Shown here piece after piece: positions 455 through 15,298 of a stretch of DNA of 21,554 nucleotides. Position 1 is the first letter of the stretch. Every line of letters starts with the position of its first letter. A program made the translations under genes and the position numbers. Location: NCBI GenBank assembly GCA_042408245.1, contig JAYFMV010000019.1:67511-89064 (forward strand). The letters run 5' to 3'. Source of the stretch: Potamolinea sp. (GTDB lineage Bacteria; Cyanobacteriota; Cyanobacteriia; Cyanobacteriales; Coleofasciculaceae). The notes under the pieces are model-generated. The model had not been told where the DNA came from. It searched no databases and saw nothing but the letters and a program-made list of their open reading frames with translations.

Positions 455-1762
455 TCAAAGTCGGGGTTCTGACATGGGCCAATTACTGGTAGGAGGAAAA
501 GATTGCTCGGTGTGCAAAATCGACGAACCGGGCTCACTAGGTTTGTTGACCCGAAGCGCCAAGCCAAATCCAGCACCTGCAGATGCAGCGATCGCACCAG
601 TCATCAGCAATGCTTGTAGTGGTAGTAAGGCTTTGTTCGTTTTACGTTTTGTAGATGCGGTGTTCTGGGACTTACCCTTAATATTTAGTTTAGTTAATAA
701 CGTATTGACAAAAGCAGTTTTATACGAATCTTTGGATTTTTCCGTCGCTAATTGAGTAGTTTTACCTTTTTTTGTTGTCTGCTTGACTGATATCTGAGCT
801 TTGGTTTTGGCTACTGAAAGCTCTTGAAGAGCAGGAGTATGCTTGACTCTTTCCTTATACCTGGGAAACAGGGATAGCCAAGCTTCTAAAGTTTGGGGAC
901 GTTTGCGAGCCGAGATTTCTAGCCCGCGCGAAATTGCCTGTTTAACAACTAAGCTAATGGATTGTTCTAAGTTTGGCGGAAAAAGTGTCTCTAAGCTATT
1001 TTCTGAGGATTGTTTGCTAACATTTGTAGGCTTCTTTAACTGTATCTCTTGTCCCTGTGCGTTAACGGACTCGCTTACAGCAAGCTTTGCTTGGCGGTGA
1101 CGAACTGGCGCCGGCTCAGGTGCATTTCCTGTTAGCAAACAGTAGAGAGTTGCTGAAGCGGCGTAAATATCTGTAGCCCGTGAGTGCTTCCCGCTAGGAT
1201 AATACTGTTCCAACGGTGCATACCCAGCACACATTAGACTGGCATGAGATTGCCTCACTCCTGCTGTAAACTCACAGGTAATACCAAACTCACATAGCAC
1301 CACAGAGTCAGTGTCTTGACGCAGAATAATGTTTTTGGGTCTGACATTGCGGTGTAGCAAACCAGCGTTATGAAGTACGAGCAAGGCGCTGCCAATTTGA
1401 CGAATATACTTAATTGCTTGATGCTCTGGCAATACCTCAATTTGAATTACTTCAGCCAGACTGTACCCCGGAATATATTCCATCACGATGTAGGGGCGTC
1501 CGCTATCTTCAAAATAGTCTAGTACCTGAACTAGATGCGGATGCTTACAGCAACTCAAGCGTTGTCCCAGATCTAGAAATTGTTGCTTAAAGTGCTCAAA
1601 ACTCGAATGTTGGCACAGATTTTCGCTGAGAGTTTTGATGACGACCGTTTGACCTGACTCGGTATGGGTTGCTTGATATGTGATACCAAACATCCCTTTG
1701 CCCAACTGAGTGTCAAGAACGTAGTTGCCGTTATTTAAGGCTGTTTTCGTCATCAAATTCAT
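455..1762 (-). CDS. Ser/Thr protein kinase-like protein, predicted pseudokinase (HRD changed to HRN, DFG changed to EFG), with a K/T/S-rich linker and a C-terminal transmembrane anchor
   Basis: The N-terminal 270 aa have a Hanks-type kinase fold: glycine loop LGKGMFGITY, VAIK-type lysine in VVIKTL, and an APE-like motif GYAPLE. The catalytic loop reads LHRNVRPKNIIL where HRDLKPEN is expected, and the Mg-binding motif is EFG, not DFG. A low-complexity K/T/S-rich region follows. One hydrophobic helix (ALLPLQALLMTGAIAASAGAGFGLALRV) sits about 30 aa before the C-terminus. Confidence 0.8.
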   Translation of the reverse strand: MNLMTKTALNNGNYVLDTQLGKGMFGITYQATHTESGQTVVIKTLSENLCQHSSFEHFKQQFLDLGQRLSCCKHPHLVQVLDYFEDSGRPYIVMEYIPGYSLAEVIQIEVLPEHQAIKYIRQIGSALLVLHNAGLLHRNVRPKNIILRQDTDSVVLCEFGITCEFTAGVRQSHASLMCAGYAPLEQYYPSGKHSRATDIYAASATLYCLLTGNAPEPAPVRHRQAKLAVSESVNAQGQEIQLKKPTNVSKQSSENSLETLFPPNLEQSISLVVKQAISRGLEISARKRPQTLEAWLSLFPRYKERVKHTPALQELSVAKTKAQISVKQTTKKGKTTQLATEKSKDSYKTAFVNTLLTKLNIKGKSQNTASTKRKTNKALLPLQALLMTGAIAASAGAGFGLALRVNKPSEPGSSILHTEQSFPPTSNWPMSEPRL

Positions 1763-1857
1763 AAAAATTTACTTACCAGTTGCTTGCCTTATGCTACCTC
1801 TTAAGGGTTTCAGGTTAAAAGTTGCCGGTTAAAAATTTCAACCGAATCGTGAGAATC

Positions 1858-1916
1858 CCCTTCCTCCGCGTAGCAGGGAGGGGAGGGAGAGCGGAGCGGC
1901 GGAAGTAGGGAGCCGC
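1858..1916. repeat. GC-rich hairpin cluster immediately 3' of isrB; candidate right-end structure of the element
   Basis: CCTCC gcgtagcag GGAGG and GGCGG aagtagggag CCGCC stem-loops. Poly-purine GGGAGGGGAGGGAG tract. Shares the 11-mer GAAGTAGGGAG with the hairpin at 3255-3281. Confidence 0.4.
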
Positions 1917-1921
1917 CCAAG

Positions 1922-3070
1922 TCAGCAGAATTTGACATAAGAGAGTAGCCTCGTTGAGCACTTAACAAGCTGAACTTTAGATACAGAAAATTGACCAATC
2001 CTGTGCCAGTTGATGTCATAAACAGAAACATTTTTTGTCTTAGCTGAATTGGTATAACCACCAATCCAGCCAGTATAAGACTGCCCCGCCTTTGAGGCGA
2101 TAGCGAAGCGCTGCTGCAAGCAGATCACCTTGTCTCCAGAACGCAACCCAAAAGGTGTAACGGTTCCACCCTTGCGTTTGCGGTGTTCTAGATGAGTGGG
2201 AGAGCCTTTAACTGGATTCTCGAAGTGCAATTGACGACGATACAACTGTGGTCTAGCTATGATGACAAACGGACATTTGGTTATCTCGATTTCCCCTAGC
2301 CAATGACCCCCACGAGCATTGTTACTTATCCAGTTTTGCCACTTAATGAAGTGGCTAGCAGCTAGAGTAAGACCATCGTGCGAGTGTGTTTCAGGAGTGG
2401 GATTAGCTTTATTGGTTTTATCTTTCGCCAACCCCAACCACTGCCGAAGATTGGAAGTTTGCCAACCTAATTGAGTGCTAGTTGGTTTAATTTCAGATAA
2501 CCACTCCACCATGATTTTCTGCCCAACCATTGCAGGTGAAAAGCTTTTACTACCCCGTGCTTCTATCCGCTCATAAATAATCTGAGATATGGGATAGAGC
2601 TTAAGTAGTTCTTTGACTACTCTTAACTCCATCTGTTTGTTCGCTCGGATACTGGGAACAAGCTTTCTTTGTCTGCGGTTGTCGAATCGCTTCTGACGAT
2701 GACAGCGTTGATTGTAGGGGAGTTTGCGATTAATTCTCCGTCCACGTCTGGCTCTTCGTAGTATCCGTCTTGTTGTCATCTTTTTGGTGACAGATTTAAA
2801 CGGTAACTGAAGATGAGCTTTGAATAGAGTTGCTTTTGTACTCTGTAGGCCAATGCCAGTAAAAAGTTTTCCTGGGTCGATACCAAGGGCAATGTCTTGG
2901 GTTTCTCTACCAGATGGCTCAGACAATAAACGGACTCCGTAAACCTCCAAATCATTGCGAACAGCAAGGGCTTTTCCTAATTTGATCCAGCGTCTAGCGC
3001 GACTGCTTTTGGTCGGCATGGCTGGAGTTCCGTCAGGATTTTGAACTGAAACTCTAATTGTGTTTGACAT
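1922..3070 (-). CDS. isrB: IsrB-like RNA-guided nickase homolog (IscB family lacking the HNH insertion), RuvC-like nuclease
   Basis: N-terminal PLMP-type motif (RVSVQNPDGTPAMPTKSSRARRWIKLGKALAV). RuvC-I motif ALGIDPG. Arginine-rich RRXRR bridge helix (RRILRRARRGRRINRKLPYNQRCHRQKRFDNRRQRK). RuvC-II motif around IIYERIEARG. RuvC-III-like HSHDGLTLAASH. There is no Cys/His HNH module between RuvC-II and RuvC-III. Length is about 380 aa. The ORF track extends the gene to a GTG at 3109; the ATG at 3070 (MSNTIRVSV...) is the more likely start. Confidence 0.7.
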   Translation of the reverse strand: MSNTIRVSVQNPDGTPAMPTKSSRARRWIKLGKALAVRNDLEVYGVRLLSEPSGRETQDIALGIDPGKLFTGIGLQSTKATLFKAHLQLPFKSVTKKMTTRRILRRARRGRRINRKLPYNQRCHRQKRFDNRRQRKLVPSIRANKQMELRVVKELLKLYPISQIIYERIEARGSKSFSPAMVGQKIMVEWLSEIKPTSTQLGWQTSNLRQWLGLAKDKTNKANPTPETHSHDGLTLAASHFIKWQNWISNNARGGHWLGEIEITKCPFVIIARPQLYRRQLHFENPVKGSPTHLEHRKRKGGTVTPFGLRSGDKVICLQQRFAIASKAGQSYTGWIGGYTNSAKTKNVSVYDINWHRIGQFSVSKVQLVKCSTRLLSYVKFC

Positions 3071-3300
3071 GGAGATAATCCTGTAAAACAGTTGTATGTT
3101 CCTTCCCACAATTCAGCTAGGATGTCCTTTCTACAAGCACTCTTAAACAAAGAGTTTGAACATAGTCCAATGAGAGGGAAACGAGCGGAAGTTCGTGCCT
3201 AACTAAATCTCATGTGGTAGACAAGAGTTACCCTTGAAAGTTGTTTCTTTCAAGCCCCTCCCTCAACGAAGTAGGGAGGGGTTCTTGACCTCTCAGCCTT
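3071..3300 (-). ncRNA. Candidate omega-RNA of the IsrB element, inferred by position only
   Basis: In IscB/IsrB systems the omega-RNA lies immediately upstream of the nuclease ORF and overlaps its 5' end, with the guide at the far upstream end. This 180-230 nt non-coding stretch carries two consecutive perfect hairpins on the isrB strand: CTTGAAAG-ttgttt-CTTTCAAG at 3233-3254 and CCCCTCCCT-caacgaagt-AGGGAGGGG at 3255-3281. No covariance model could be run. Confidence 0.3.
3233..3281. repeat. Two tandem perfect stem-loops (8 bp and 9 bp stems) at the isrB-proximal end; candidate left-end TnpA-recognition or omega-RNA structure
   Basis: cttgaaag ttgttt ctttcaag at 3233-3254. cccctccct caacgaagt agggagggg at 3255-3281. 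Confidence 0.6.
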
Positions 3301-6115
3301 TGAGTGGATAATTCTCTGCCAGAAAAGCTTCAGCATCAGCTTGATCATCAATCAACCCATCCAGCGTAGCCGCTAACAAAGCATCCAAGATTTGTCTGTA
3401 TTGGGGGCCAGGTTTATAACCCAACTGCTTAAGATCATTACCATTAAGCGGTAATTGAACATCCGTCAAAATACTGAAATATTCCCAAATCTTACGTCTT
3501 ACTGCTCTGGGACTCTTCACTGCGAGCAAAATCAAGGTGGATAACTTGTACTGACGCAGCAAGCGGACAATTTCACTCTTGAGCCCAGAAACTGAGAGAA
3601 ACTCTACCACTGACTCTTGTATTTGAGCTAATTGCTGGAGGCGCTCAATACTGTCCGATGGTAGCTGAAGATTTGTGGCCACCTTAGCACGTTCTTCAGG
3701 AGCGAGATAAGCAATTAATACTTCCAGCCGGATTTGCCAGTGTTCCAGAGTTTGCTCAGGGTCAAACCGTCGCAGCCAACGGTCAACTAAACGTACTTGC
3801 CACCATAGCTTTTCATCTAGCTTAAGAGTGAAATGGAGACAACGCAGCGCTCCCAAAGACGCCAGTAACTGCAAAGCTTTTTCCCAGTAAGGAGCCTGTA
3901 AAATATGTTTAAGTTCGGCTTTGAGTCTGGTTTGTAGTGCTGGTGCTTTAGCATTTGCCTTCATTGAGCGCTCGTAGACTCCACTTTCAAGCGCATAGCG
4001 GATATAAGCTTCGGTTTGAGGTTCAATTTGAAATCCCAAACGTACCGCAAAGCGCACAGCACGATAAATCCGGGTTGGGTCTTCGATAAAACTGTTAGCG
4101 TGGAGTACCCGAATTTGACGCGATCGCAAATCCAACAACCCCCCAAAAAAATCCATCAGAGGAAACGCCCAACCAAGGTCAGAAGTTAGTCGGACAGCCA
4201 AAGCATTAATGGTAAAATCTCGTCGATAAAGGTCTTGACGAATCGAACTGGCTTCAACTTCAGGATTAGCCGCAGGGTAGGGATAAAATTCTGTTCGTGC
4301 GGTGGCAATATCTATCCAGAGAGAGCCAAGAATGGGGTCATTGTGCCACAACAAGGCAGCAGTTTGAAAAGCCCCGTGAACGTCTAGACGGACGTTTGGG
4401 TAAATTTTCTGTAGCGCTTGGGCCAGTATTACTCCAGCACCAGTGTCTGCTGAACGATGAAAGCCATCTACTACCAAGTCAATATCTTTTAGAAAGACGT
4501 TATCAGAGCCTTCAACCAGCAATAAGTCTCTTACGGCTCCTCCTACCAAGTAAAGATGCCAGCCCCGTTCCTTGGCTTCCTGGGCGGCTTTGCTAAGCAA
4601 TTCTTTAAGGGGAGGAACCAAACGCTCCCGAAGATTCCGGATTGCTTCCCTAGAGATTGGAGGGGTGGAATCGGGACTGGGGATAGGACAAGAATCGAAT
4701 TGGGTCTCCTGTTGATGCAGTTGTCGCAACACGTCGGTGCGAGTCACAATTCCGACTAATTGCCCATTCTCTAAAACTGGTAGACGCCCAATATCGTATG
4801 TCACCATCAGCCACTGAAGATCTGGTAGAGGTGTCTGAGGAGTAATTGTTTTTAGATTTTTGGTCATGTAGCCTTTGACCGGCGCATGACCAAAACCGTG
4901 ATGTAGGGCTAAATCAATATCTCGTCGCGAGATAACTCCTACAAGTTGGTCGTTTTCGTCTACTACCGAAAGTCCTGAATGACCATACCGCAGCAATATT
5001 CTCTGTGCTTCGCTAATCGTGGTTTGGGGACGAATTGTGCGTACTGGTGAAGACATGAGTTCCCGTGCGGTTAAAGGTTGGGGAATTTGCTCTTTGAGTT
5101 GGTTAACTAGCTGTTCAAGGATTTGTGTGGGATTAACATCTCGGAGTCTCACTGCTGCTGCTTGGGAATGTCCCCCACCACCTAGGGGTTGCAGTAATTC
5201 GTTTAAATTTGTCCCTTCAATACGCGATCGCCCAATCACTGTCAAAAGTGACCCTGTTACCCTCTGAGAAATATTAGACACATTCTCCCGTGCTCCCCCA
5301 TCTCCCCTATCTCCCCCATCTCTCCCATCTCCCCCATCTCCCCCATCTCCCCCATCTCTCCCATCTCCCCCATACTCAGCGGCCAACAGCAGTGCATCAC
5401 TCTCAGTTAACTCAAGCAGTCGTGTCGCCAAACTGGATAACCCTGGTACGTAGTCATGGGTTTTGAGGATTACCCAGGAAACGGTGTAGCCTAAGTGAGT
5501 TTGTGACTGCAAGTTATGTAAGGCTTCGGTCAAAAGTTTTTGTAAGCGAGGAGACAGTCCAGGGTCAACGTATTCGGAGATTTGCCGCACGTTTGCTCCC
5601 TGTAGCATCAACCAAGCTAAAGCAGCAGCGTCTCTTGGTGTCGTCTGGTCAAAGGTCAGTGAACCTGTATCAACATGAATACCCAAGGCCATCACTGTTG
5701 CTTCTGCGATGGTCAAGGAGATTTCGCTTTGCTGCAACTGCTCAACAATTATGGTAGTTGTCGCTCCTACGGGTTCAATGTGAGTATGTGTAGCGGGAAT
5801 ATCTGTATGAATATCTAGGTGATGGTCGTAGATTTCAATTGAGGTTAACTGAGGTAAGTCTAACCACTGGGCTGCTTTTCCCAGGCGATCGCGCGATGAA
5901 GTATCTACTACAATCAGAGACTGAATCTGTTGGGAATTGACAGAGCGGCGTTCAATCAGCGCATACTCATCTCGATGCAATGCCAAAAAATCTCGAACAG
6001 CAGGATGAGCGCCACCAGTGAGAACTAATTTAGCTCCTGGTTTTAGGCACGTCAGCCCCACCGCTGCTCCCAAGGCGTCAAAGTCAGCCGTTGTATGACA
6101 CAAAATCAGATCCAT
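3293..6115 (-). CDS. Multidomain RNA-end enzyme: NrnA-like DHH/DHHA1 phosphoesterase, two CBS domains, and a class II nucleotidyltransferase (CCA-adding / poly(A) polymerase family)
   Basis: DHH motifs [15 protein letters not shown] and IEIYDHH. DHHA1 motif GGGH ([13 protein letters not shown]). A tandem CBS pair follows ([20 protein letters not shown]...[20 protein letters not shown]). The nucleotidyltransferase head carries [17 protein letters not shown] and [11 protein letters not shown] low-complexity [26 protein letters not shown] segment lies between DHH and DHHA1. Confidence 0.85.
5296..5373. repeat. In-frame tandem repeat of the 9-bp unit CCATCTCCC, about 8.5 copies with point variants, inside the DHH-nucleotidyltransferase gene
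   Basis: Direct reading gives ccatctccc ctatctccc ccatctctc ccatctccc ccatctccc ccatctccc ccatctctc ccatctccc. On the coding strand this encodes the (G-G-D/G-R-D)n linker. Because the unit length is a multiple of 3, copy-number changes preserve the reading frame. Confidence 0.9.
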
Positions 6116-6229
6116 CGTTCAAGCTTTGAGTACTTTTACCAACTGTAAGGAATCTGTAAGTCTGCGCTACGCACAGGAAAAAGGTTGTAGGAATACCGCT
6201 TTTCAGGCAGCAGCCTTTAACCATGAAGC

Positions 6230-7684
6230 TCACCCCACCTTTTTAGAGGTGGGGGTGTCTATGCTAAGAAAGGGACTGTTGAGGTTCCACAAATCACAAA
6301 GACAAGCCCAGCTTCTAGGCAAGCGTCCAGAATTTTTACTGGGGCGCTTCTCGTAGTCCTTTCGGCTATCGAGTTTAAGCCAACCTCTCGCGGCGATATT
6401 GTAAGACCCGTTCAGGTCGCAGTTGTAACGCTTCCCGCTAGAGAAAGTAGCTAATGCGTAATTCTTATTGTCGCGTTTCACTTTGCCCGACCCATCATAA
6501 GCAAGCTTTGAGGTATAGGCAGCAATCACGGTGATTGTTTTGCCGCCTAACTCAGCCCATTTACGTTGGGTCAGATCAACGATTAGGCTTTTGAGCCAAC
6601 CATGAAACCGTTGCTTCAGGTTAGATCGTTTCCTGCCTCCCTTTGGCTTCCAGCCTTTGAGATCCTCAAACACAATTGCGTCTGCACGCTCTGTCTGAGC
6701 AATCTGGGTAATGCGTTTAGAAACGGTATGCCCCATCTGTTGATTGATATTGCGACACTTGCGATAGGTGTTTTTGCAGAATCCTAACCCTAGTTTTCCG
6801 CCTTTCCCCATCGTCTTCTTAGCCCGTATCGAAACTGATTTCAGTCGCTTGTCGCGGCGGTCTATGTCTCTTCCAGGATGAATAAATTCACGATGGATTA
6901 CAGTACCGTCACGGCTCACCACTGAAACAGTAGCAGTCGTATTAATTCCTAAATCAACCGCCACAACCACGCCAGCCCCTTTCACCTTCTCAGGGTGGCA
7001 CTCAAAGGGAACCGACAAATGGCAAAATTTGTCGTTCACGATCAGCGAGGGTGATTTGATTTGATTGGTCGAAATCTTATGCCGTTCACGCCACGAAGCG
7101 ATAGGCATGGCGCTCCAAATCCAATCGGTTCCGGTAAACACTTTAATTTCGACTTGCTCGAATCCATGCAGCTTGAAACATTGCCCTTTGTACAGAGCAG
7201 GATAACAACCCGCACTACTATTGAGAATTGGGGGTTTTGCATCTCTACGGTTCCGACTTTGCCCAGACTGCCAATCCCGGTATCGAGTCATGTAGCTACT
7301 CACCTGTCCTGCTGCAAACATGATTGCAGCGCGGCGTAAATAGCTAGGGAACTTGTGAAACGCTCGGTTAATTTGAGGGTATTTCGGATGAGGATTCTTT
7401 GCGGTTCCATGTACCAATCTTTCGACGGCAGGAACGATATTATCACCGCTTAGATTCCCCAAATCAACCCAGTGGGTACAGATCACCGTCACCAAGAACC
7501 GACATAAACGGCGGTATTCCTGCACAGTGTTAAGCAGATATTGTCTCTGCTCACTGCTTGGGGCAATGCGCCACTTGTCGGTTCTGATAGCGCGAGCGGT
7601 AGCGACGTAGGAGCGTCTGGTTTTAGGTGCTGTTTTTTGTCCCATAGTATTTATAGTGTAGCGCATAGAGTAAAACCATGACAA
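6230..7684 (-). CDS. tnpB: TnpB-family RuvC-like protein (IS605 OrfB). The zinc-finger cysteines are absent. The start codon is uncertain: TTG at 7684, or ATG at 7666 or 7645.
   Basis: RuvC-I motif VVAVDLGINTTATV. RuvC-II motif AIVFEDLKG. YTS motif (AAYTSKLAY). RuvC-III motif CDLNGSYNIAARG. Where the two CxxC pairs are expected, the sequence reads LAYDGSG...FSSGKRYNCD. Divergently coupled to tnpA. Confidence 0.7.
   Translation of the reverse strand: MSWFYSMRYTINTMGQKTAPKTRRSYVATARAIRTDKWRIAPSSEQRQYLLNTVQEYRRLCRFLVTVICTHWVDLGNLSGDNIVPAVERLVHGTAKNPHPKYPQINRAFHKFPSYLRRAAIMFAAGQVSSYMTRYRDWQSGQSRNRRDAKPPILNSSAGCYPALYKGQCFKLHGFEQVEIKVFTGTDWIWSAMPIASWRERHKISTNQIKSPSLIVNDKFCHLSVPFECHPEKVKGAGVVVAVDLGINTTATVSVVSRDGTVIHREFIHPGRDIDRRDKRLKSVSIRAKKTMGKGGKLGLGFCKNTYRKCRNINQQMGHTVSKRITQIAQTERADAIVFEDLKGWKPKGGRKRSNLKQRFHGWLKSLIVDLTQRKWAELGGKTITVIAAYTSKLAYDGSGKVKRDNKNYALATFSSGKRYNCDLNGSYNIAARGWLKLDSRKDYEKRPSKNSGRLPRSWACLCDLWNLNSPFLSIDTPTSKKVG
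6231..6257. repeat. Subterminal hairpin at the tnpB-proximal end (right end) of the IS605-type element
   Basis: caCCCCACCT ttttag AGGTGGGGgtg. It overlaps the last codons of tnpB (...TPTSKKVG*) and is the same motif as at 8115-8138. Confidence 0.65.
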
Positions 7685-8097
7685 GAAGCTTAAGAGCTTT
7701 TGCTCACAGCTATTGCAGTATTCAGATTCATATGGTGTTTGTTACAAAGTATCGTCACCCCGTCTTGACTGAGCAGATAGAGTCTGACATCATCCAACTG
7801 TGTCGAGGGATCTGCGAAAAAAACCGTTCTTACCTCGTAGAAGCAAAAGCAGATTTAGAGATGAAAGACCATATCCATTTGTTAATAGACTTTGCGCCTG
7901 ATGTCTCTGTGTCGAAGCTGGCTAACACAATGAAGACCGTTACCAGTCGTGAGATTCGGAAGCGTTTTGCAACTGAACTGAAACCTTATTACTGGAAACC
8001 TGTTTTTTGGAAGCGCGGCTATTGTGCTGTTTCTGGGGGTGGCGCAACGCTTGAGGTTATTAAGTCCTATATCCAATCTCAGGGTAAGGACGACTAG
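7678..8097 (+). CDS. tnpA: IS200/IS605-family Y1 (HUH) transposase TnpA
   Basis: 139 aa. IHMVFVTKYRHPVL. HUH motif HIHLLI. C-terminal catalytic tyrosine context WKRGYCAVSGGG...IKSYIQSQ. The size and motif order match IS200 TnpA. Confidence 0.85.
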   Translation: MTRSLRAFAHSYCSIQIHMVFVTKYRHPVLTEQIESDIIQLCRGICEKNRSYLVEAKADLEMKDHIHLLIDFAPDVSVSKLANTMKTVTSREIRKRFATELKPYYWKPVFWKRGYCAVSGGGATLEVIKSYIQSQGKDD

Positions 8098-8114
8098 ATC
8101 CGGTGTTCGGCTAA

Positions 8115-8138
8115 CCCCCACCTGTTCCGAGGTGGGGG
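8115..8138. repeat. Subterminal hairpin at the tnpA-proximal end (left end) of the IS605-type element
   Basis: CCCCCACCT gttccg AGGTGGGGG, a perfect 9-bp stem. Same motif and orientation as at 6231-6257. Confidence 0.65.
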
Positions 8139-8307
8139 AGTGCGCCTCACTTGAAGTTCAACAAAGCTGGCCTGTAACAGACTTGGTAATTTCAGCAAAA
8201 GCGGGTCAAATTTTGGTAGCGTACTAAACAGGAAAGATTTAATATCAGCCCCGAATTGGGCTGAATATTTTCTATCGATTTTTACGCTTGTCTTGGGAGA
8301 ATAGTAA

Positions 8308-8509: not shown

Positions 8510-8536
8510 GCACTAAATGCTTAGGCATTATAGTGC
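8510..8536. repeat. Near-perfect palindrome centred on the stop codon of the solo tnpB, 14 nt after the psbZ stop
   Basis: GCACTAAATGC ttag GCATTaTAGTGC. Candidate right-end or omega-RNA 3' hairpin of the solo tnpB element, or the psbZ 3' stem-loop, or both. Confidence 0.5.
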
Positions 8537-9786
8537 AGGCTTCCCAGATCGCTATTGGATATTGCTGCCCTACGCCACTTATCTAGGCTCATCACCCCCG
8601 ACAGCCCGACATGAGTGCCAATTTCTTTCCCCCAAAGTCCTTGGGTACTCAGTTGCTCATAACCTCGGTTACAGATTTCCTGTGCCGAGACTACATCTCT
8701 ATCAGCTTCGTAACCACATTCTGGGCAACTATGCCATCGCTCTTTCAGTTCTTTCCTGACTTCAATGCGGCAATTTGGACAAGTCTGAGACGTTCCTTTG
8801 TGGTTGACCTCGGCAACATATACACCTCGCTGTTTACCCACATAAGAAAGGATAGTTCTGAACTGTCCAAAGGCTGCATCAATGGTGTGCTTACCTAAAA
8901 AGCCCTTTGCCATGATTCGGAAATCGATATCTTCCACGAAGATGGTATCAGCCATGTCACACAATTTGTGAGCCAATTTGAACTGATAGTCTTTACGTTT
9001 GAAGGCAATGTGGTTATGTTGACGCTCTACCTTGAGCCTAACTTTCTCATAGTTTTTAGAGCGCTTCTTCTTTTTCGACAGTCTGCGTTGTAGCACTTTC
9101 AGCCGACGATGCTCTGTGGCAAAGAATTTACGCCCTGGCTCAATGAATCCTTCACTGGTCGCTAGATAATTATTCAACCCAACATCCACCCCAATCAAGT
9201 GTCCGTGAGGCATGGGAGCGGGGATAGAGAGATCAGAATGAATGCTGATTACAGCAAACCAGCCCATTGCTTTTTTGAGTATCCTGACTTGTTTGACTAC
9301 AAACCCTTCTGGGATTGGTCGATGCAAGTTGATTTGAACTTTCCCCAGTTTGGGTAACTTGATTTGCCACCCTGTAATTGGATTAGTGGAAAACTGAGGA
9401 AAAAGTATCGACTTCCAGAGTCCATACTTCTTGAATCTCGGAAATCCATAACCCCTTTTCTGGAAAAAGTCCCAGGAATCATGCAATCTTCTAATCGTTG
9501 TTTGCAACACCTGAGAAGGCACTGCTGCTAGTCGCGGAAAGTCCTTTTTAGCTTTGGGGAGATTGTTTTGCTGCTGATGGTATCCAGGAAAAGGATAGTC
9601 AGCACTCATGATGTACTCTGACTCCAAACTACAGCTATCTATTGGACACTTCCTAGAAGCAATCCAGTCCTTTAGTTCCCTGAGTGCATAGTTATACGCA
9701 TGACGACAAGTTTCAAGCCATTCGTTCAGTAACTCGACTTGCTGCTCATCGGGTATTAGGCGGTAGGTGTAGTTGAGAGTTATCAT
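8521..9786 (-). CDS. tnpB: Canonical TnpB (IS605 OrfB / IS1341-like) RNA-guided nuclease family protein. Solo, with no tnpA.
   Basis: N-terminus YRLIPDEQQVELLNEWLETCRHAYNYAL. RuvC-I motif LIGVDVGLNNYLATS. RuvC-II motif TIFVEDIDF. Intact zinc finger TSQTCPNC...WHSCPECG. RuvC-III motif ADRDVVSAQEICNRG. Confidence 0.85.
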   Translation of the reverse strand: MITLNYTYRLIPDEQQVELLNEWLETCRHAYNYALRELKDWIASRKCPIDSCSLESEYIMSADYPFPGYHQQQNNLPKAKKDFPRLAAVPSQVLQTTIRRLHDSWDFFQKRGYGFPRFKKYGLWKSILFPQFSTNPITGWQIKLPKLGKVQINLHRPIPEGFVVKQVRILKKAMGWFAVISIHSDLSIPAPMPHGHLIGVDVGLNNYLATSEGFIEPGRKFFATEHRRLKVLQRRLSKKKKRSKNYEKVRLKVERQHNHIAFKRKDYQFKLAHKLCDMADTIFVEDIDFRIMAKGFLGKHTIDAAFGQFRTILSYVGKQRGVYVAEVNHKGTSQTCPNCRIEVRKELKERWHSCPECGYEADRDVVSAQEICNRGYEQLSTQGLWGKEIGTHVGLSGVMSLDKWRRAAISNSDLGSLHYNA

Positions 9787-11312: not shown

Positions 11313-11384
11313 GCGGGTATAGCTCAGTGGTAGAGCGTCACCTTGCCAAGGTGAATGTCGCGCGTTCGAATCGCGTTACCCGCT
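11313..11384 (+). tRNA. tRNA-Gly (anticodon GCC)
   Basis: A cloverleaf was folded by hand. Acceptor stem GCGGGTA/TACCCGC. D arm GCTC-AGTGGTA-GAGC. Anticodon stem TCACC/GGTGA with loop TTGCCAA. T arm GCGCG-TTCGAAT-CGCGT. Discriminator T. No encoded CCA. Confidence 0.9.
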
Positions 11385-13728: not shown

Positions 13729-13899
13729 TCAAAGGAAGGGGTTCAATACCCCTTTCTTTGACATTTTCTTGGCTAGAGTTCGCAGGTAATCTCTAAACAC
13801 GTCATTCTGGGTTCTGGCGGTCATCTCGCAGTATTGTCGCCACACTTCTTTTTCTTCCGGGGTGAGGCGAAAGTTAACATTTTCGGTAAGTTTTGCCAT
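13729..13899 (-). CDS. Small ribbon-helix-helix (CopG/Arc-like) DNA-binding protein, 56 aa; below the ORF-track length cutoff
   Basis: Translates as MAKLTENVNFRLTPEEKEVWRQYCEMTARTQNDVFRDYLRTLAKKMSKKGVLNPFL. The beta-strand (VNFRLT) plus two helices match the RHH signature. ATG at 13899, stop at 13729-13731. The start lies 35 nt from the divergent tnpB-like start. The terminator sits about 100 nt downstream. Confidence 0.5.
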   Translation of the reverse strand: MAKLTENVNFRLTPEEKEVWRQYCEMTARTQNDVFRDYLRTLAKKMSKKGVLNPFL

Positions 13900-13933
13900 T
13901 ACTTTGTATTTGATATTCCATTACAATAGTGAC

Positions 13934-15298
13934 ATGAAATACACTTACCAGTACAAGGCGCTTCCCACAACCGAACAGAAGCTAGAGTTGAATCTCTGGC
14001 GGCGAACCTGCCAGTACTGGTATAATCGCCAACTCGGAGATCGCGTTATGTGGTGGGACTCAAACCGCACACCTGTTGACGCTTGCCCACTGGTGGCGAC
14101 GCTGCCAGAACTTCGTGACCAACCCAACTACTACAGCCAGAAAAAGTATCTACCAGGACTCAAGAAAGAACCTGTATTAGTGGAGTGGTCTGGGGAAAAG
14201 TTAGACTTATCAAGAGTTCCAGCAAACACGTTACAGGAAGTCTGTAAACGAGTTGACTTGGCCTTCCAACGATTTACCGCAGGTGATACAAGCGGAAACC
14301 GAAGCGGCAGACCCCGCTTCAAGTCACAATCTCGCTATCGTTCATTTGTGATTGAAGGCGCCTCTTTGGATCTATACTCTTGCTCAATTGGCGGCAAGTT
14401 CCTGTACATTAAGGTGCCAAAGATTGGTGTCGTCAAAATTCGTTCTCATCGGCATTTGCCTGATGGTGCAGTTCTCAAGCAATTGCAGTTCATCAAGAAC
14501 AATGATGGCTGGTTCGTTAATCTTCGGTTGGAAGATCCAACTGTTCCCATTTGCACCAATGACATCATTCCCACTTGGGAAAACTCGCTGGGCATGGACG
14601 CTGTGCTGCATGAAGAAGATTACCTAGCAACCAGTGAGAATACCAAGCTTCCCTCCCTGAAGGTGTTGAGGAAAAGCCAGCACAAACTAACTCACGTTTC
14701 CTCAAAAAAGAACGCCCGAAAGCGCGGCTCTAAGGCACGTCGAAAGCTGGCGAAAAGAGAGGGCAAACTGCATCAAAAGATTGCCAGACATCGTAAAAAT
14801 TTCCACTACAAAACCGCCCATAAATTGTTGAGAACGGGCAAGAAAGTTTTCTTCCATGAAGACCTCAACCTAAAAGGTCTGTCAAGGCGCAACGCCCCCA
14901 AACAAGACGAAACTGGGGCATACATACCGAATGGACAGTCTGCCAAGTCGGGACTCAATATGAGTTGGTCTGATGCTGCCTTCGGTCAATTCTTTCAAAT
15001 CCTCGGTCACATAGCTGGAAAAGCTGGAGCCGTAGTGATACCGAAGAATCCCGCTTATACCTCCCAACTCCTTGCTTATCGAGATGAAGTGATCTTCATC
15101 GACTGTGGCATTCGCCAGTATTGGGATGAGCTAGAAAATCTCTGGGTTGATCGTGACGTTAATGCTGCGATCAATGTTCTGAGAGTGGGGCTGGACGTGT
15201 TCCCCACTATAAAACGCCGTAAAGGTGGAATAGTAATAGTCGGTTCTATCACTAAAGATACCTCCAAGGAAGTTCTACGCATTCTCCGGAGTGCTTGA
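13934..15298 (+). CDS. tnpB: TnpB-family RuvC-like protein (IS605 OrfB) with the zinc finger degenerated
   Basis: N-terminus MKYTYQYKALPTTEQKLELNLWRRTCQYWYNRQLGDR. RuvC-I motif SLGMDAVL. RuvC-II motif KVFFHEDLNLKG. YTSQ motif. RuvC-III motif DRDVNAAINVL. The CxxC...CxxC pairs are replaced by LAYRDE...FIDCGIRQ. The ORF-track start at 13862 is a GTG extension that overlaps the divergent RHH ORF; the ATG at 13934 is in frame and fits the family N-terminus. Confidence 0.75.
   Translation: MKYTYQYKALPTTEQKLELNLWRRTCQYWYNRQLGDRVMWWDSNRTPVDACPLVATLPELRDQPNYYSQKKYLPGLKKEPVLVEWSGEKLDLSRVPANTLQEVCKRVDLAFQRFTAGDTSGNRSGRPRFKSQSRYRSFVIEGASLDLYSCSIGGKFLYIKVPKIGVVKIRSHRHLPDGAVLKQLQFIKNNDGWFVNLRLEDPTVPICTNDIIPTWENSLGMDAVLHEEDYLATSENTKLPSLKVLRKSQHKLTHVSSKKNARKRGSKARRKLAKREGKLHQKIARHRKNFHYKTAHKLLRTGKKVFFHEDLNLKGLSRRNAPKQDETGAYIPNGQSAKSGLNMSWSDAAFGQFFQILGHIAGKAGAVVIPKNPAYTSQLLAYRDEVIFIDCGIRQYWDELENLWVDRDVNAAINVLRVGLDVFPTIKRRKGGIVIVGSITKDTSKEVLRILRSA

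Follow-up and report, generated by a model that had tools for sequence, protein, structure and literature searches.

Cyanobacterial IsrB proteins, together with their omega-RNAs and their NTG(A) target-adjacent motif (TAM), have been published and biochemically tested (PMC9581776). The closest described systems to the locus reported here are the IsrB OMEGA systems CwIsrB (Crocosphaera watsonii) and DsIsrB (Dolichospermum sp.), both with group B2 omega-RNAs, and DtIsrB (Altae-Tran et al., 2021; PMC9581776). The TAM of DtIsrB and CwIsrB is TTGA/NTG(A) (PMC9581776), the DtIsrB omega-RNA holds its guide 5' of the scaffold (PMC9581776), and the SL1/SL2 region of the RNA doubles as a transposon end (Hirano et al., 2022; PMC9581776). 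Two further groups serve for comparison, namely IscB/ISC elements with their HEARO RNA (Kapitonov, 2016; RF02033; Meers et al., 2023), for which a tendency to lie in the orientation of the upstream gene was published in 2023, and the TnpA-TnpB elements of the IS605/IS608 type. The family, its mechanism and its cyanobacterial orthologues have all been published, and the element described below is a further member; it adds little in concept, work of 2021-2022 having already described and tested IsrB, its omega-RNA, the TTGA TAM and the orthologues from cyanobacteria.

Within a 21,554-nt stretch of Potamolinea sp. DNA (contig JAYFMV010000019.1; hereafter, the window), the minus-strand interval 1842-3289 is very probably a non-autonomous IS200/IS605-type OMEGA element, predicted from its sequence to comprise an omega-RNA and IsrB, an RNA-guided nickase that lacks HNH. 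An earlier note on this DNA had placed an element of about 1.4 kb at 1855-3300; the size holds (1448 nt), while both ends have moved, to 1842 and 3289, on the evidence of a second copy and of empty sites. Homology with the second copy (L081), which is ~98% identical and lies in a different genomic context, spans 3290/3289 to 1838. Two empty orthologous loci (L082 and L083) read ...CCACTCAAAAGCTGAAAG|TTGAAATTTT, with ...GCTGA(A/G)AG joined directly to TTGAAATTTT, and the insertion was therefore scarless, with ...GGCTGAGAG on one side and TTGA on the other; the junctions are ambiguous by 1 nt (G). Since the occupied site, the empty site and a second copy can all be compared, this is a clean example from nature: the ends are fixed to the nucleotide, and guide and TAM can be read without experiment. 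The element begins 3 nt past the TGA stop (3293-3295) of a co-oriented DHH-CBS-PolyA_pol (nucleotidyltransferase) gene, within the 1-10 nt first proposed. Its features are those of an IS200/IS605-type insertion: it is scarless, lies beside a short motif without target duplication and carries subterminal hairpins on one strand. Scarless insertion is shared with IscB/ISC elements, which are likewise non-autonomous and of IS200/IS605 type, and one-strand subterminal hairpins, insertion 3' of a short motif and the lack of a target duplication are shared with IS605/IS608. As first described, no tnpA is found inside the element. The presence of the L081 copy at another locus, with different flanking context, supports mobility, and comparison with the empty sites indicates that the element arrived recently when set against strains that share 95% amino-acid identity.

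The TTGA motif at 1838-1841 (minus strand) is host DNA outside the element. It occurs once in each of the empty sites L082 and L083, directly after the guide-matching sequence, and genomic comparison showed that it follows the element in nearly all family loci, where it is preceded by the conserved end motif GGGGAnTCCCGCGAAnnnG; in copies within one genome, the sequences diverge immediately past TTGA. As read from genomes, this TTGA is the known IsrB NTGA-type TAM, in agreement with the published flank. On the opposite side, the predicted 20-nt guide ATCCACTCAAAGGCTGAGAG lies at 3290-3309 (minus strand), covering the last five codons, the TGA stop and GAG of the DHH-CBS-PolyA_pol gene; its length is taken from DtIsrB, the omega-RNA of which holds the guide at the corresponding position. 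That the guide would be drawn from the 3' end of this gene, as had been suggested, is upheld by reconstruction of the empty site. In IscB/ISC elements, too, the flank upstream of the ORF supplies the guide, and the TAM is at the opposite flank. The guide RNA of IS605/IS608 also comes from flanking DNA, but there the RNA lies 3' of the ORF, whereas it lies 5' in the IsrB element, and the IsrB TAM is 3' of the target.

The isrB coding sequence occupies 1922-3070 (minus strand, 382 aa). The ORF of 395 aa reported originally is present, opening at an upstream GTG (1922-3109), but family alignment and a conserved upstream AGGA place the true start at the ATG at 3070 (MSNTIRV...). Assignment to the IsrB/IscB family is borne out by the best scores obtained, which were to Pfam RRXRR (E = 2.3e-42) and, using phmmer against PDB, to DtIsrB (8DMB, E = 3.5e-35), aligned full length over residues 4-373. 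As in published IsrB, the protein has a PLMP motif, RuvC-I, bridge helix, RuvC-II, RuvC-III and a TAM-interacting domain, and the motifs PAMPTK (PLMP), GIDPG, RRARRGRR, YERIE and ETHSHD occur in the expected order. PLMP is represented by GTPAMPTK at residues 14-21, which aligns with DtIsrB GRPLMPT and in which M18, P19, T20 and K21 do not vary across the family. Also invariant are the RuvC catalytic residues D65 (GIDPG), E167 (YE) and H229/D232 (ETHSHD), the arginine-rich bridge helix RRILRRARRGRRINR, and R357/Q360, which align to the TAM readers R323/Q326 of DtIsrB and are conserved as in other IsrB systems. The sequence is that of a full-length IsrB in which the RuvC and TAM-reading residues are intact. 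Identity to DtIsrB is about 35% over the alignment, as a rough estimate. An insertion of ~25 aa after RuvC-III sets the protein apart from DtIsrB and probably corresponds to the beta-hairpin that has been reported in CwIsrB and DsIsrB. An AlphaFold2 model from a 21-sequence alignment had a mean pLDDT of 46, too low for the model to be of use. The search returned 1778 homologues; those listed for which the source names an organism are cyanobacterial, and dN/dS against 85%-identical relatives is 0.05-0.06.

Directly 5' of isrB, at 3071-3289 (minus strand), lies the omega-RNA scaffold, the start of which coincides with the element boundary. An omega-RNA had been proposed in a 180-nt stretch upstream of the ORF; a conserved, covarying RNA is present there, and the stretch measures 219 nt rather than 180. 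The scaffold comprises S1, SL1, SL2, S2, S3, S4, SL4, SL5, SL6, SL7 and two pseudoknots, with no SL3, an inventory that matches published IsrB omega-RNAs, including the SL2-SL5 and SL4-linker pseudoknots of group B and the lack of SL3 in subgroup B2. Using nhmmer with the window sequence as query, it was found upstream of isrB in 70 of 80 cyanobacterial loci, and with the family profile as query in nearly all 80; a second copy in locus L055 is a candidate stand-alone omega-RNA. The scaffold always begins GTCAA (GUCAA in the published RNAs, which also lie directly 5' of the ORF), while the 5' flanks (20 nt) are unrelated among 30 aligned loci. The RNAalifold consensus has 50 pairs, 41 of them with compensatory changes; when S1 and both pseudoknots are included, 49/65 pairs change on both sides, and 94.3% of cells pair, compared with 72% for shuffles and 32-50% for slid controls. 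The single-sequence fold of the upstream region gave an uninformative z = -1.8.

The two hairpins noticed at the outset, at 3255-3281 and 3233-3254, are real, covary and correspond to SL1 and SL2. SL1 (CCCCTCCCT-ACTTCGTTG-AGGGAGGGG, minus strand) belongs to the guide-adaptor region and is also the subterminal transposon-end hairpin; 8 of the 9 pairs in its stem covary, and it is in register with the SL1 base of the DtIsrB omega-RNA. SL2 (CTTGAAAG-AAACAA-CTTTCAAG, minus strand) has a covarying stem, and its loop ACAA forms pseudoknot 1 with the SL5 loop TTGT (columns 89-92 with 203-206; 95.8% paired), in which three of four pairs change on both sides (CCAG:CTGG, ACAA:TTGT, TCAG:CTGA). SL4, at 3166-3190 (minus strand), has a conserved loop TTTCCCT that forms pseudoknot 2 with AAGGAAC at 3094-3107. 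The DtIsrB scaffold opens cGUCAACCACCCC, and when its published dot-bracket structure was projected onto the family through a MAFFT alignment, five helices fell in register (S1, the SL1 base, S4, SL4 and part of S3); the remaining helices slip by 1-2 columns, and their equivalence to DtIsrB is one of order and topology. Both the 5' sequence and the architecture thus agree with the published DtIsrB omega-RNA, as the check for a structured RNA had called for. The present scaffold differs from that of DtIsrB in length (219 nt vs 262 nt), in its shorter SL1 and in lacking SL3 and SL8. Rfam gave no relevant match, whether the whole window and 13 family loci were searched at gathering score or 1700-3700 at E<=10, the scans returning chance-level H19_3 and Gl_U2 matches alone; the RNA is therefore identified by comparative analysis together with one published sequence and structure.

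The present copy carries several mild lesions, and its current activity is therefore uncertain. An in-frame 24-nt insertion at 2102-2125 (minus strand), which occurs once in the window, is absent from L081 and from 120/120 homologues and adds eight residues (ICLQQRFA), private to this copy relative to published IsrB, to the C-terminal TAM-interacting domain, ~35 residues upstream of the TAM-reading R357/Q360. Residue 371 is C in this copy and R in 116/120 homologues. In the RNA, SL4 pair 168:183 (C.T) and pseudoknot pair 175:259 (C.A) are broken in the window alone among 30 sequences, and ~6 differences from L081 cluster within 15 nt of SL4. One may accordingly ask whether this is a genuine IsrB element that has become a decaying, non-functional relic, its lesions having inactivated the nuclease-RNA complex though the ORF stayed open. 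The dN/dS of 0.40 against the nearest copy (L081) points the same way, but it derives from just 19 differences, too few for reliability. Against decay, the ORF is intact and every catalytic and TAM-reading residue is kept, 49/50 RNAalifold pairs are retained, a family HMM built without the window sequence scores the window at 189.7 bits, within the family range, and the element itself was inserted recently on the scale of strains at 95% amino-acid identity. We consider such a relic possible, though on balance doubtful.

Against the reading as an IsrB element stand also the lack of an internal tnpA and the promoter scan, which found no sigma-70-like minus-strand site upstream of the omega-RNA. 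In its favour, upstream ORFs are co-oriented in a ratio of 29:8, a bias that the element appears to share with IscB/ISC, as it may a dependence on TnpA in trans. Drawing on published work (Altae-Tran 2021; Hirano 2022; Meers 2023), we propose that transcription from the host gene would enter the element and yield an omega-RNA whose 5' ~20 nt (ATCCACTCAAAGGCTGAGAG) serve as guide. IsrB with this RNA would recognise the guide-matching sequence only where TTGA comes next, an arrangement expected only in the unoccupied or excised site, the occupied site having GTCA after the guide sequence. IsrB would then nick the non-target strand, and recombination with an element-bearing sister chromosome could restore or spread the element. 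Excision and insertion would need Y1 TnpA in trans; this enzyme would place the element 3' of TCAA as read on the plus strand of the window, the transposon top strand.

That the host gene is flanked by an IS605 element on one side and IsrB on the other was recognised early and stands: an IS605-type pair of Y1 TnpA (7678-8097) and TnpB (6230-7684) lies on the far side of the DHH-CBS-PolyA_pol gene, TnpA being 4.4 kb from the IsrB element. The two elements differ in nuclease lineage, IsrB being of the Cas9-ancestor and TnpB of the Cas12-ancestor line. The IS605 element extends over about 6160-8150 in the window; the intergenic sequences of L082 and L083 have diverged too far to give its exact junctions. 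Hairpins of a similar C-rich/G-rich style occur there at 6233-6256 and 8114-8137, and TTCAA is found 12 nt ahead of its own end hairpin. A fuller account, which we put forward tentatively and regard as rather unlikely in its entirety, is that of a still-active, recently inserted IsrB element whose omega-RNA would be made solely by read-through from the host gene and which could move only with the help of the Y1 TnpA of this neighbouring IS605. A composite transposon, in which the two flanking elements would move the host gene, was rejected because the active strands appear to be opposite, the top strand of the IsrB element being plus and that of IS605 being taken as minus; the latter assignment is the tnpB sense strand, and both strands and conclusion follow from the known layout of the IS605 family.

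Hairpins of this kind elsewhere in the window, including those at 6233-6256 and 8114-8137, could also suggest that the GC-rich hairpins around isrB belong to the host, as repeats or terminators (REP-like) beside an RRXRR-domain gene, and form no part of a mobile element or guide RNA. The 3' non-coding end of the element (1842-1921, minus strand, terminating in ...GATTCGG) contains hairpins at 1896-1917 and 1857-1883. The latter (CCCCTCCCT...GGAGGAAGGGG) and the 5' hairpin (CCCCTCCCT...AGGGAGGGG) lie on one strand and are alike, the two scoring a mean of 15.6 within an element and 11.6 against the hairpins of other elements. End hairpins of similar flavour, as first described, are thus real, and they recur at other copies of the element. 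Contrary to what host repeats would predict, they accompany the gene, at ~98% identity, to another locus, are missing from the empty sites, and keep their position and covary in at least 30 loci from many genera. The copy elsewhere and the empty sites refute the host-repeat reading, which we hold to be very improbable.

The order of IscB-family motifs and the absence of HNH, both claimed from the start, were confirmed, no Pfam HNH match being found at E<=0.01. In contrast to IscB/ISC, the protein would on this basis be a nickase and not a double-strand nuclease. IscB PDB chains align with the N-terminal third alone (residues ~9-141), and 1700-3700 was not matched by the HEARO covariance model (RF02033), or by any other Rfam family, at E<=10. 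That the protein is instead an IscB whose HNH is cryptic or degenerate, cutting both strands, is refuted at the sequence level and hardly credible, since its one point of favour, a partial match to NCBIfam guided_IscB (NF040563 equivalog), is confined to residues 9-169 (profile positions 3-156 of 314) and falls short of the curated full-length cutoff (89 vs 175 bits), while the ~60 residues between RuvC-II (E167) and RuvC-III (H229) hold neither a CxxC nor an HNH motif and the alignment with DtIsrB runs end to end.

These findings bear on annotation, in that the "RRXRR domain-containing protein" becomes IsrB and the 219-nt "intergenic" stretch becomes omega-RNA. They also reveal a large clade of cyanobacterial omega-RNAs that goes undetected by Rfam 15, for which the present alignment and structure could seed a covariance model. 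If the tentative account of an active element moved by its neighbour is true, one TnpA would serve two elements, of Cas12-ancestor and Cas9-ancestor lineage respectively, on either side of one host gene in a polyploid cyanobacterium, and the locus would offer a natural setting for testing whether nicking alone is enough to retain a transposon.

The earlier note had described a 395-aa ORF with IscB-family motifs in order, from PLMP to RuvC-III, and without an HNH insertion. An ORF of this length with a GTG start is present on the minus strand (1922-3109), but the starts of 20 aligned homologues all fall at or near a Met at 3070 (MSNTIRV...), with conserved AGGATTATCTCC just before it, and we therefore assign isrB to 1922-3070 (minus strand, 382 aa). 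The motifs were found in the expected order: PAMPTK (the PLMP motif), GIDPG, RRILRRARRGRRINR, YE(R)IE and ETHSHD. The sole Pfam match is RRXRR (2.3e-42), and the single full-length match in a phmmer search of the PDB is the IsrB of 8DMB (DtIsrB; E=3.5e-35, residues 4-373), while all IscB chains cover only approximately residues 9-141 (PLMP, RuvC-I and bridge helix) and a short second stretch to RuvC-II near 167. The NCBIfam IscB equivalog aligns with residues 9-169 only (89 bits, cutoff 175), and the approximately 60 residues separating RuvC-II (E167) from RuvC-III (H229/D232) contain no CxxC or HNH motif, in agreement with the HNH-less assignment. Invariant in the family alignment are D65, E167, H229 and D232, as well as R357 and Q360, whose DtIsrB counterparts, R323 and Q326, are the demonstrated readers of G and A in the TTGA target-adjacent motif (TAM). 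A large-database search yielded 1778 homologues; among the matches listed, these are cyanobacterial wherever the source names an organism.

Two strong hairpins, SL1 (3255-3281) and SL2 (3233-3254), lie 5' of isrB on the minus strand. Rfam gave no match in the isrB upstream region even at E<=10, and none in 13 related loci. For comparison, 80 cyanobacterial loci were fetched with the IsrB protein; the window's upstream region precedes isrB in 70 of them (nhmmer, single-sequence query), and in nearly all when a profile is used. Conservation begins at an invariant GTCAA (3289-3285), and the 20 nt preceding it show no relation among loci. RNAalifold predicted 50 pairs, 41 of them with compensatory changes. 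This model was extended by a closing helix, S1 (GTCAAG paired with CTTGTC), and by two pseudoknots, one between the SL2 and SL5 loops and one between the SL4 loop (TTTCCCT) and AAGGGA. In the extended model, 94.3% of cells pair, versus 72% in column shuffles and 32-50% with slid partners, and both-sided changes occur at 49 of 65 pairs. The element order is the same as in the published DtIsrB omega-RNA, whose scaffold starts with cGUCAACCACCCC; when it is aligned to the family, its S1, SL1 base, S4 and SL4 stay in register (84-98% paired), and the other helices are shifted out of it. Omega-RNAs of "group B" are defined by the pseudoknots SL2-SL5 and SL4-linker, and SL3 is missing in the window's family, a trait also published for the CwIsrB and DsIsrB RNAs of cyanobacteria (subgroup B2). 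Comparison with RNA models, which the earlier note had proposed, thus drew a blank in Rfam but recovered a covarying, DtIsrB-like structure, in which the "two consecutive perfect hairpins" correspond to SL1 and SL2. Both belong to the guide-adaptor region, which also matters for IS200/IS605 transposition (Hirano et al., 2022). One related locus, L055, has a second omega-RNA-like sequence (2924-3159, minus strand of the locus; 98.5 bits to the family profile). It lies on the opposite strand to the isrB-linked copy, approximately 650 nt upstream of it, with no adjoining isrB homologue reported, and may represent either the remnant of an element or an omega-RNA on its own.

The element lies between genes for a DHH-CBS-PolyA_pol protein (upstream, 3293-6115) and a Ser/Thr kinase (downstream, 455-1762). 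The closest protein homologue, P0001, comes from a metagenome contig, L081, where its genomic neighbours are different (acetyltransferase and CobU genes). Between window positions 3290/3289 and 1838, end hairpins included, the DNA of the two copies is approximately 98% identical, and it is unrelated outside. In two loci with DHH orthologues (L082 and L083; 95% and 89% protein identity), the kinase gene follows 83 nt on and the element is absent. The L082 empty site reads ...TATCCACTCAAAAGCTGAAAG joined to TTGAAATTTTTTAACC; the window reads ...TATCCACTCAAAGGCTGAGAG followed by GTCAAGAACCCC at the left junction and ...GATTCGG followed by TTGAAATTTTTAACC at the right. These junctions, together with the limits of the L081 copy, indicate an element of 1448 nt at 1842-3289 (with a 1-nt G ambiguity), a scarless insertion and a TTGA (1838-1841) belonging to the host. 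A compact element between two host genes was therefore correctly recognized, but its ends are 1842 and 3289 instead of 1855 and 3300. Family-wide, elements terminate in ...GGGGAnTCCCGCGAAnnnG and then TTGA, directly past which same-genome copies diverge; experiments established TTGA as the TAM of DtIsrB, and work on CwIsrB used the same TAM. The predicted guide, ATCCACTCAAAGGCTGAGAG (3309-3290, minus strand), comprises the DHH gene's last five codons, its stop codon and three more bases, as anticipated from the position of the element. Because the guide sequence in the occupied site runs into GTCA, not NTGA, the element would spare itself.

In approximately 11 of 30 co-oriented family loci, the upstream stop-to-stop ORF ends at most 6 nt from GTCAA or enters the element; since TTGA includes TGA, the insertion point may in some cases coincide precisely with the stop codon of the host gene. 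The element's first 27 nt, read in frame, finish with TGA. Within the DHH gene, a 9-nt tandem repeat (5275-5382; nine overlapping family members, CTCCCCCAT-like) specifies a low-complexity linker of the GDGGDGRDG type, which is probably where the length variation of DHH orthologues (919-966 aa) is located.

Two further hairpins (1896-1917 and 1857-1883, minus strand) lie 3' of isrB. As first noticed, the hairpins of the two ends look alike when read on the isrB strand (CCCCTCCCT..AGGGAGGGG at the 5' end, CCCCTCCCT..GGAGGAAGGGG at the 3' end), and in relatives both vary together (CCCCACCCT with CCCCATCCT in L003, CCCCCACCT with CCCCCACCT in L055). Across 40 loci, the mean local score of a locus's SL1 was 15.6 against its own 3' end and 11.6 against those of other loci, with the own end ranked first in 10, a modest trend that is confounded by phylogeny. 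Read on the plus strand, the element has the same geometry as IS200/IS605 (TCAA, 15 nt, hairpin ... hairpin, 8 nt, end). In the closest relatives, L001-L003 (e.g. L003 4794-4960), the 3' end hairpin loop holds an extra 40-90 nt, GTTCATTCTCGCCTGACGG...GCTGCGAAAATCCGCC, missing in the window and L081, which may be a nested small insertion.

An IS605-type element (6159-8150, ends approximate) lies just upstream of the DHH gene, which is thus flanked by the two elements as the earlier note had it. It contains a Y1 TnpA (7678-8097, plus strand; 1.1e-35) and a divergent TnpB-like ORF (6230-7684, minus strand; Pfam OrfB_IS605 26.7 bits, under the family's 30.5-bit cutoff); in L083, which lacks it, the sequences from its two sides are directly joined. 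Its hairpins, CCCCCACC..GGTGGGGG (8114-8137 and 6233-6256), are similar to those of the isrB element, and a TTCAA 12 nt ahead of the first resembles the TCAA-plus-hairpin geometry. On these resemblances, its TnpA is a candidate trans-mobiliser of the isrB element. Two further TnpB-family ORFs (8521-9786, minus strand, and 13862-15298, plus strand; Pfam OrfB_IS605 and Cas12f1-like_TNB) bring the OMEGA nuclease genes in the 21.5-kb window to four. The window also contains a tRNA gene (11313-11384; Rfam 71.8 bits; anticodon loop UUGCCAA, i.e. GCC, Gly) and scattered HIP1 sites (GCGATCGC), which fit a cyanobacterial origin.

A dead relic would be the reading favored by lesions private to this copy. 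A 24-nt in-frame insertion (2102-2125; minus-strand sequence ATCTGCTTGCAGCAGCGCTTCGCT, partly palindromic) occurs in no other isrB copy and has no second copy within the window. At columns at least 95% conserved among 120 homologues, this 8-aa insertion and R371C are the copy's only departures. Among 30 sequences, the window alone breaks a pair in SL4 and another in a pseudoknot, inside an SL4 patch (3166-3190) with approximately six substitutions or indels in 15 nt relative to L081. The comparison with L081 gives 8 synonymous and 11 non-synonymous differences. The IsrB family as a whole is under strong purifying selection (dN/dS approximately 0.05-0.06 versus 85%-identical relatives). Against the relic reading, the RNA of this copy retains 49 of the 50 RNAalifold pairs and reaches 189.7 bits with a profile from which the window was left out, within the family range. 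Weighing these, we rate a recent, possibly still active copy above a dead relic.

The following mechanism draws on Altae-Tran 2021, Hirano 2022 and Meers 2023. With the guide located beyond the element's end and no promoter-like site found on the omega-RNA strand, the omega-RNA would most simply be made by transcription leaving the co-oriented host gene. In 29 of the clade's 37 informative loci, the closest long ORF upstream has the same orientation (downstream ORF, 22 of 31), and the upstream bias was already reported for IscB (Meers et al., 2023). IsrB and omega-RNA would nick the guide-plus-TTGA site, that is, an empty or newly excised site, and the nick would favor recombinational re-installation of the element from the sister chromosome; movement would require TnpA in trans.

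Taken together, these findings confirm the isrB observation and support its interpretation as an IsrB OMEGA element, of an already well-described kind. In the empty sites, the DHH and kinase genes are co-oriented with 83 nt between them and may form an operon; the insertion leaves them 1.53 kb apart (1763-1841 and 3290-3295 flanking the element), a separation with a possible polar effect on the kinase gene.
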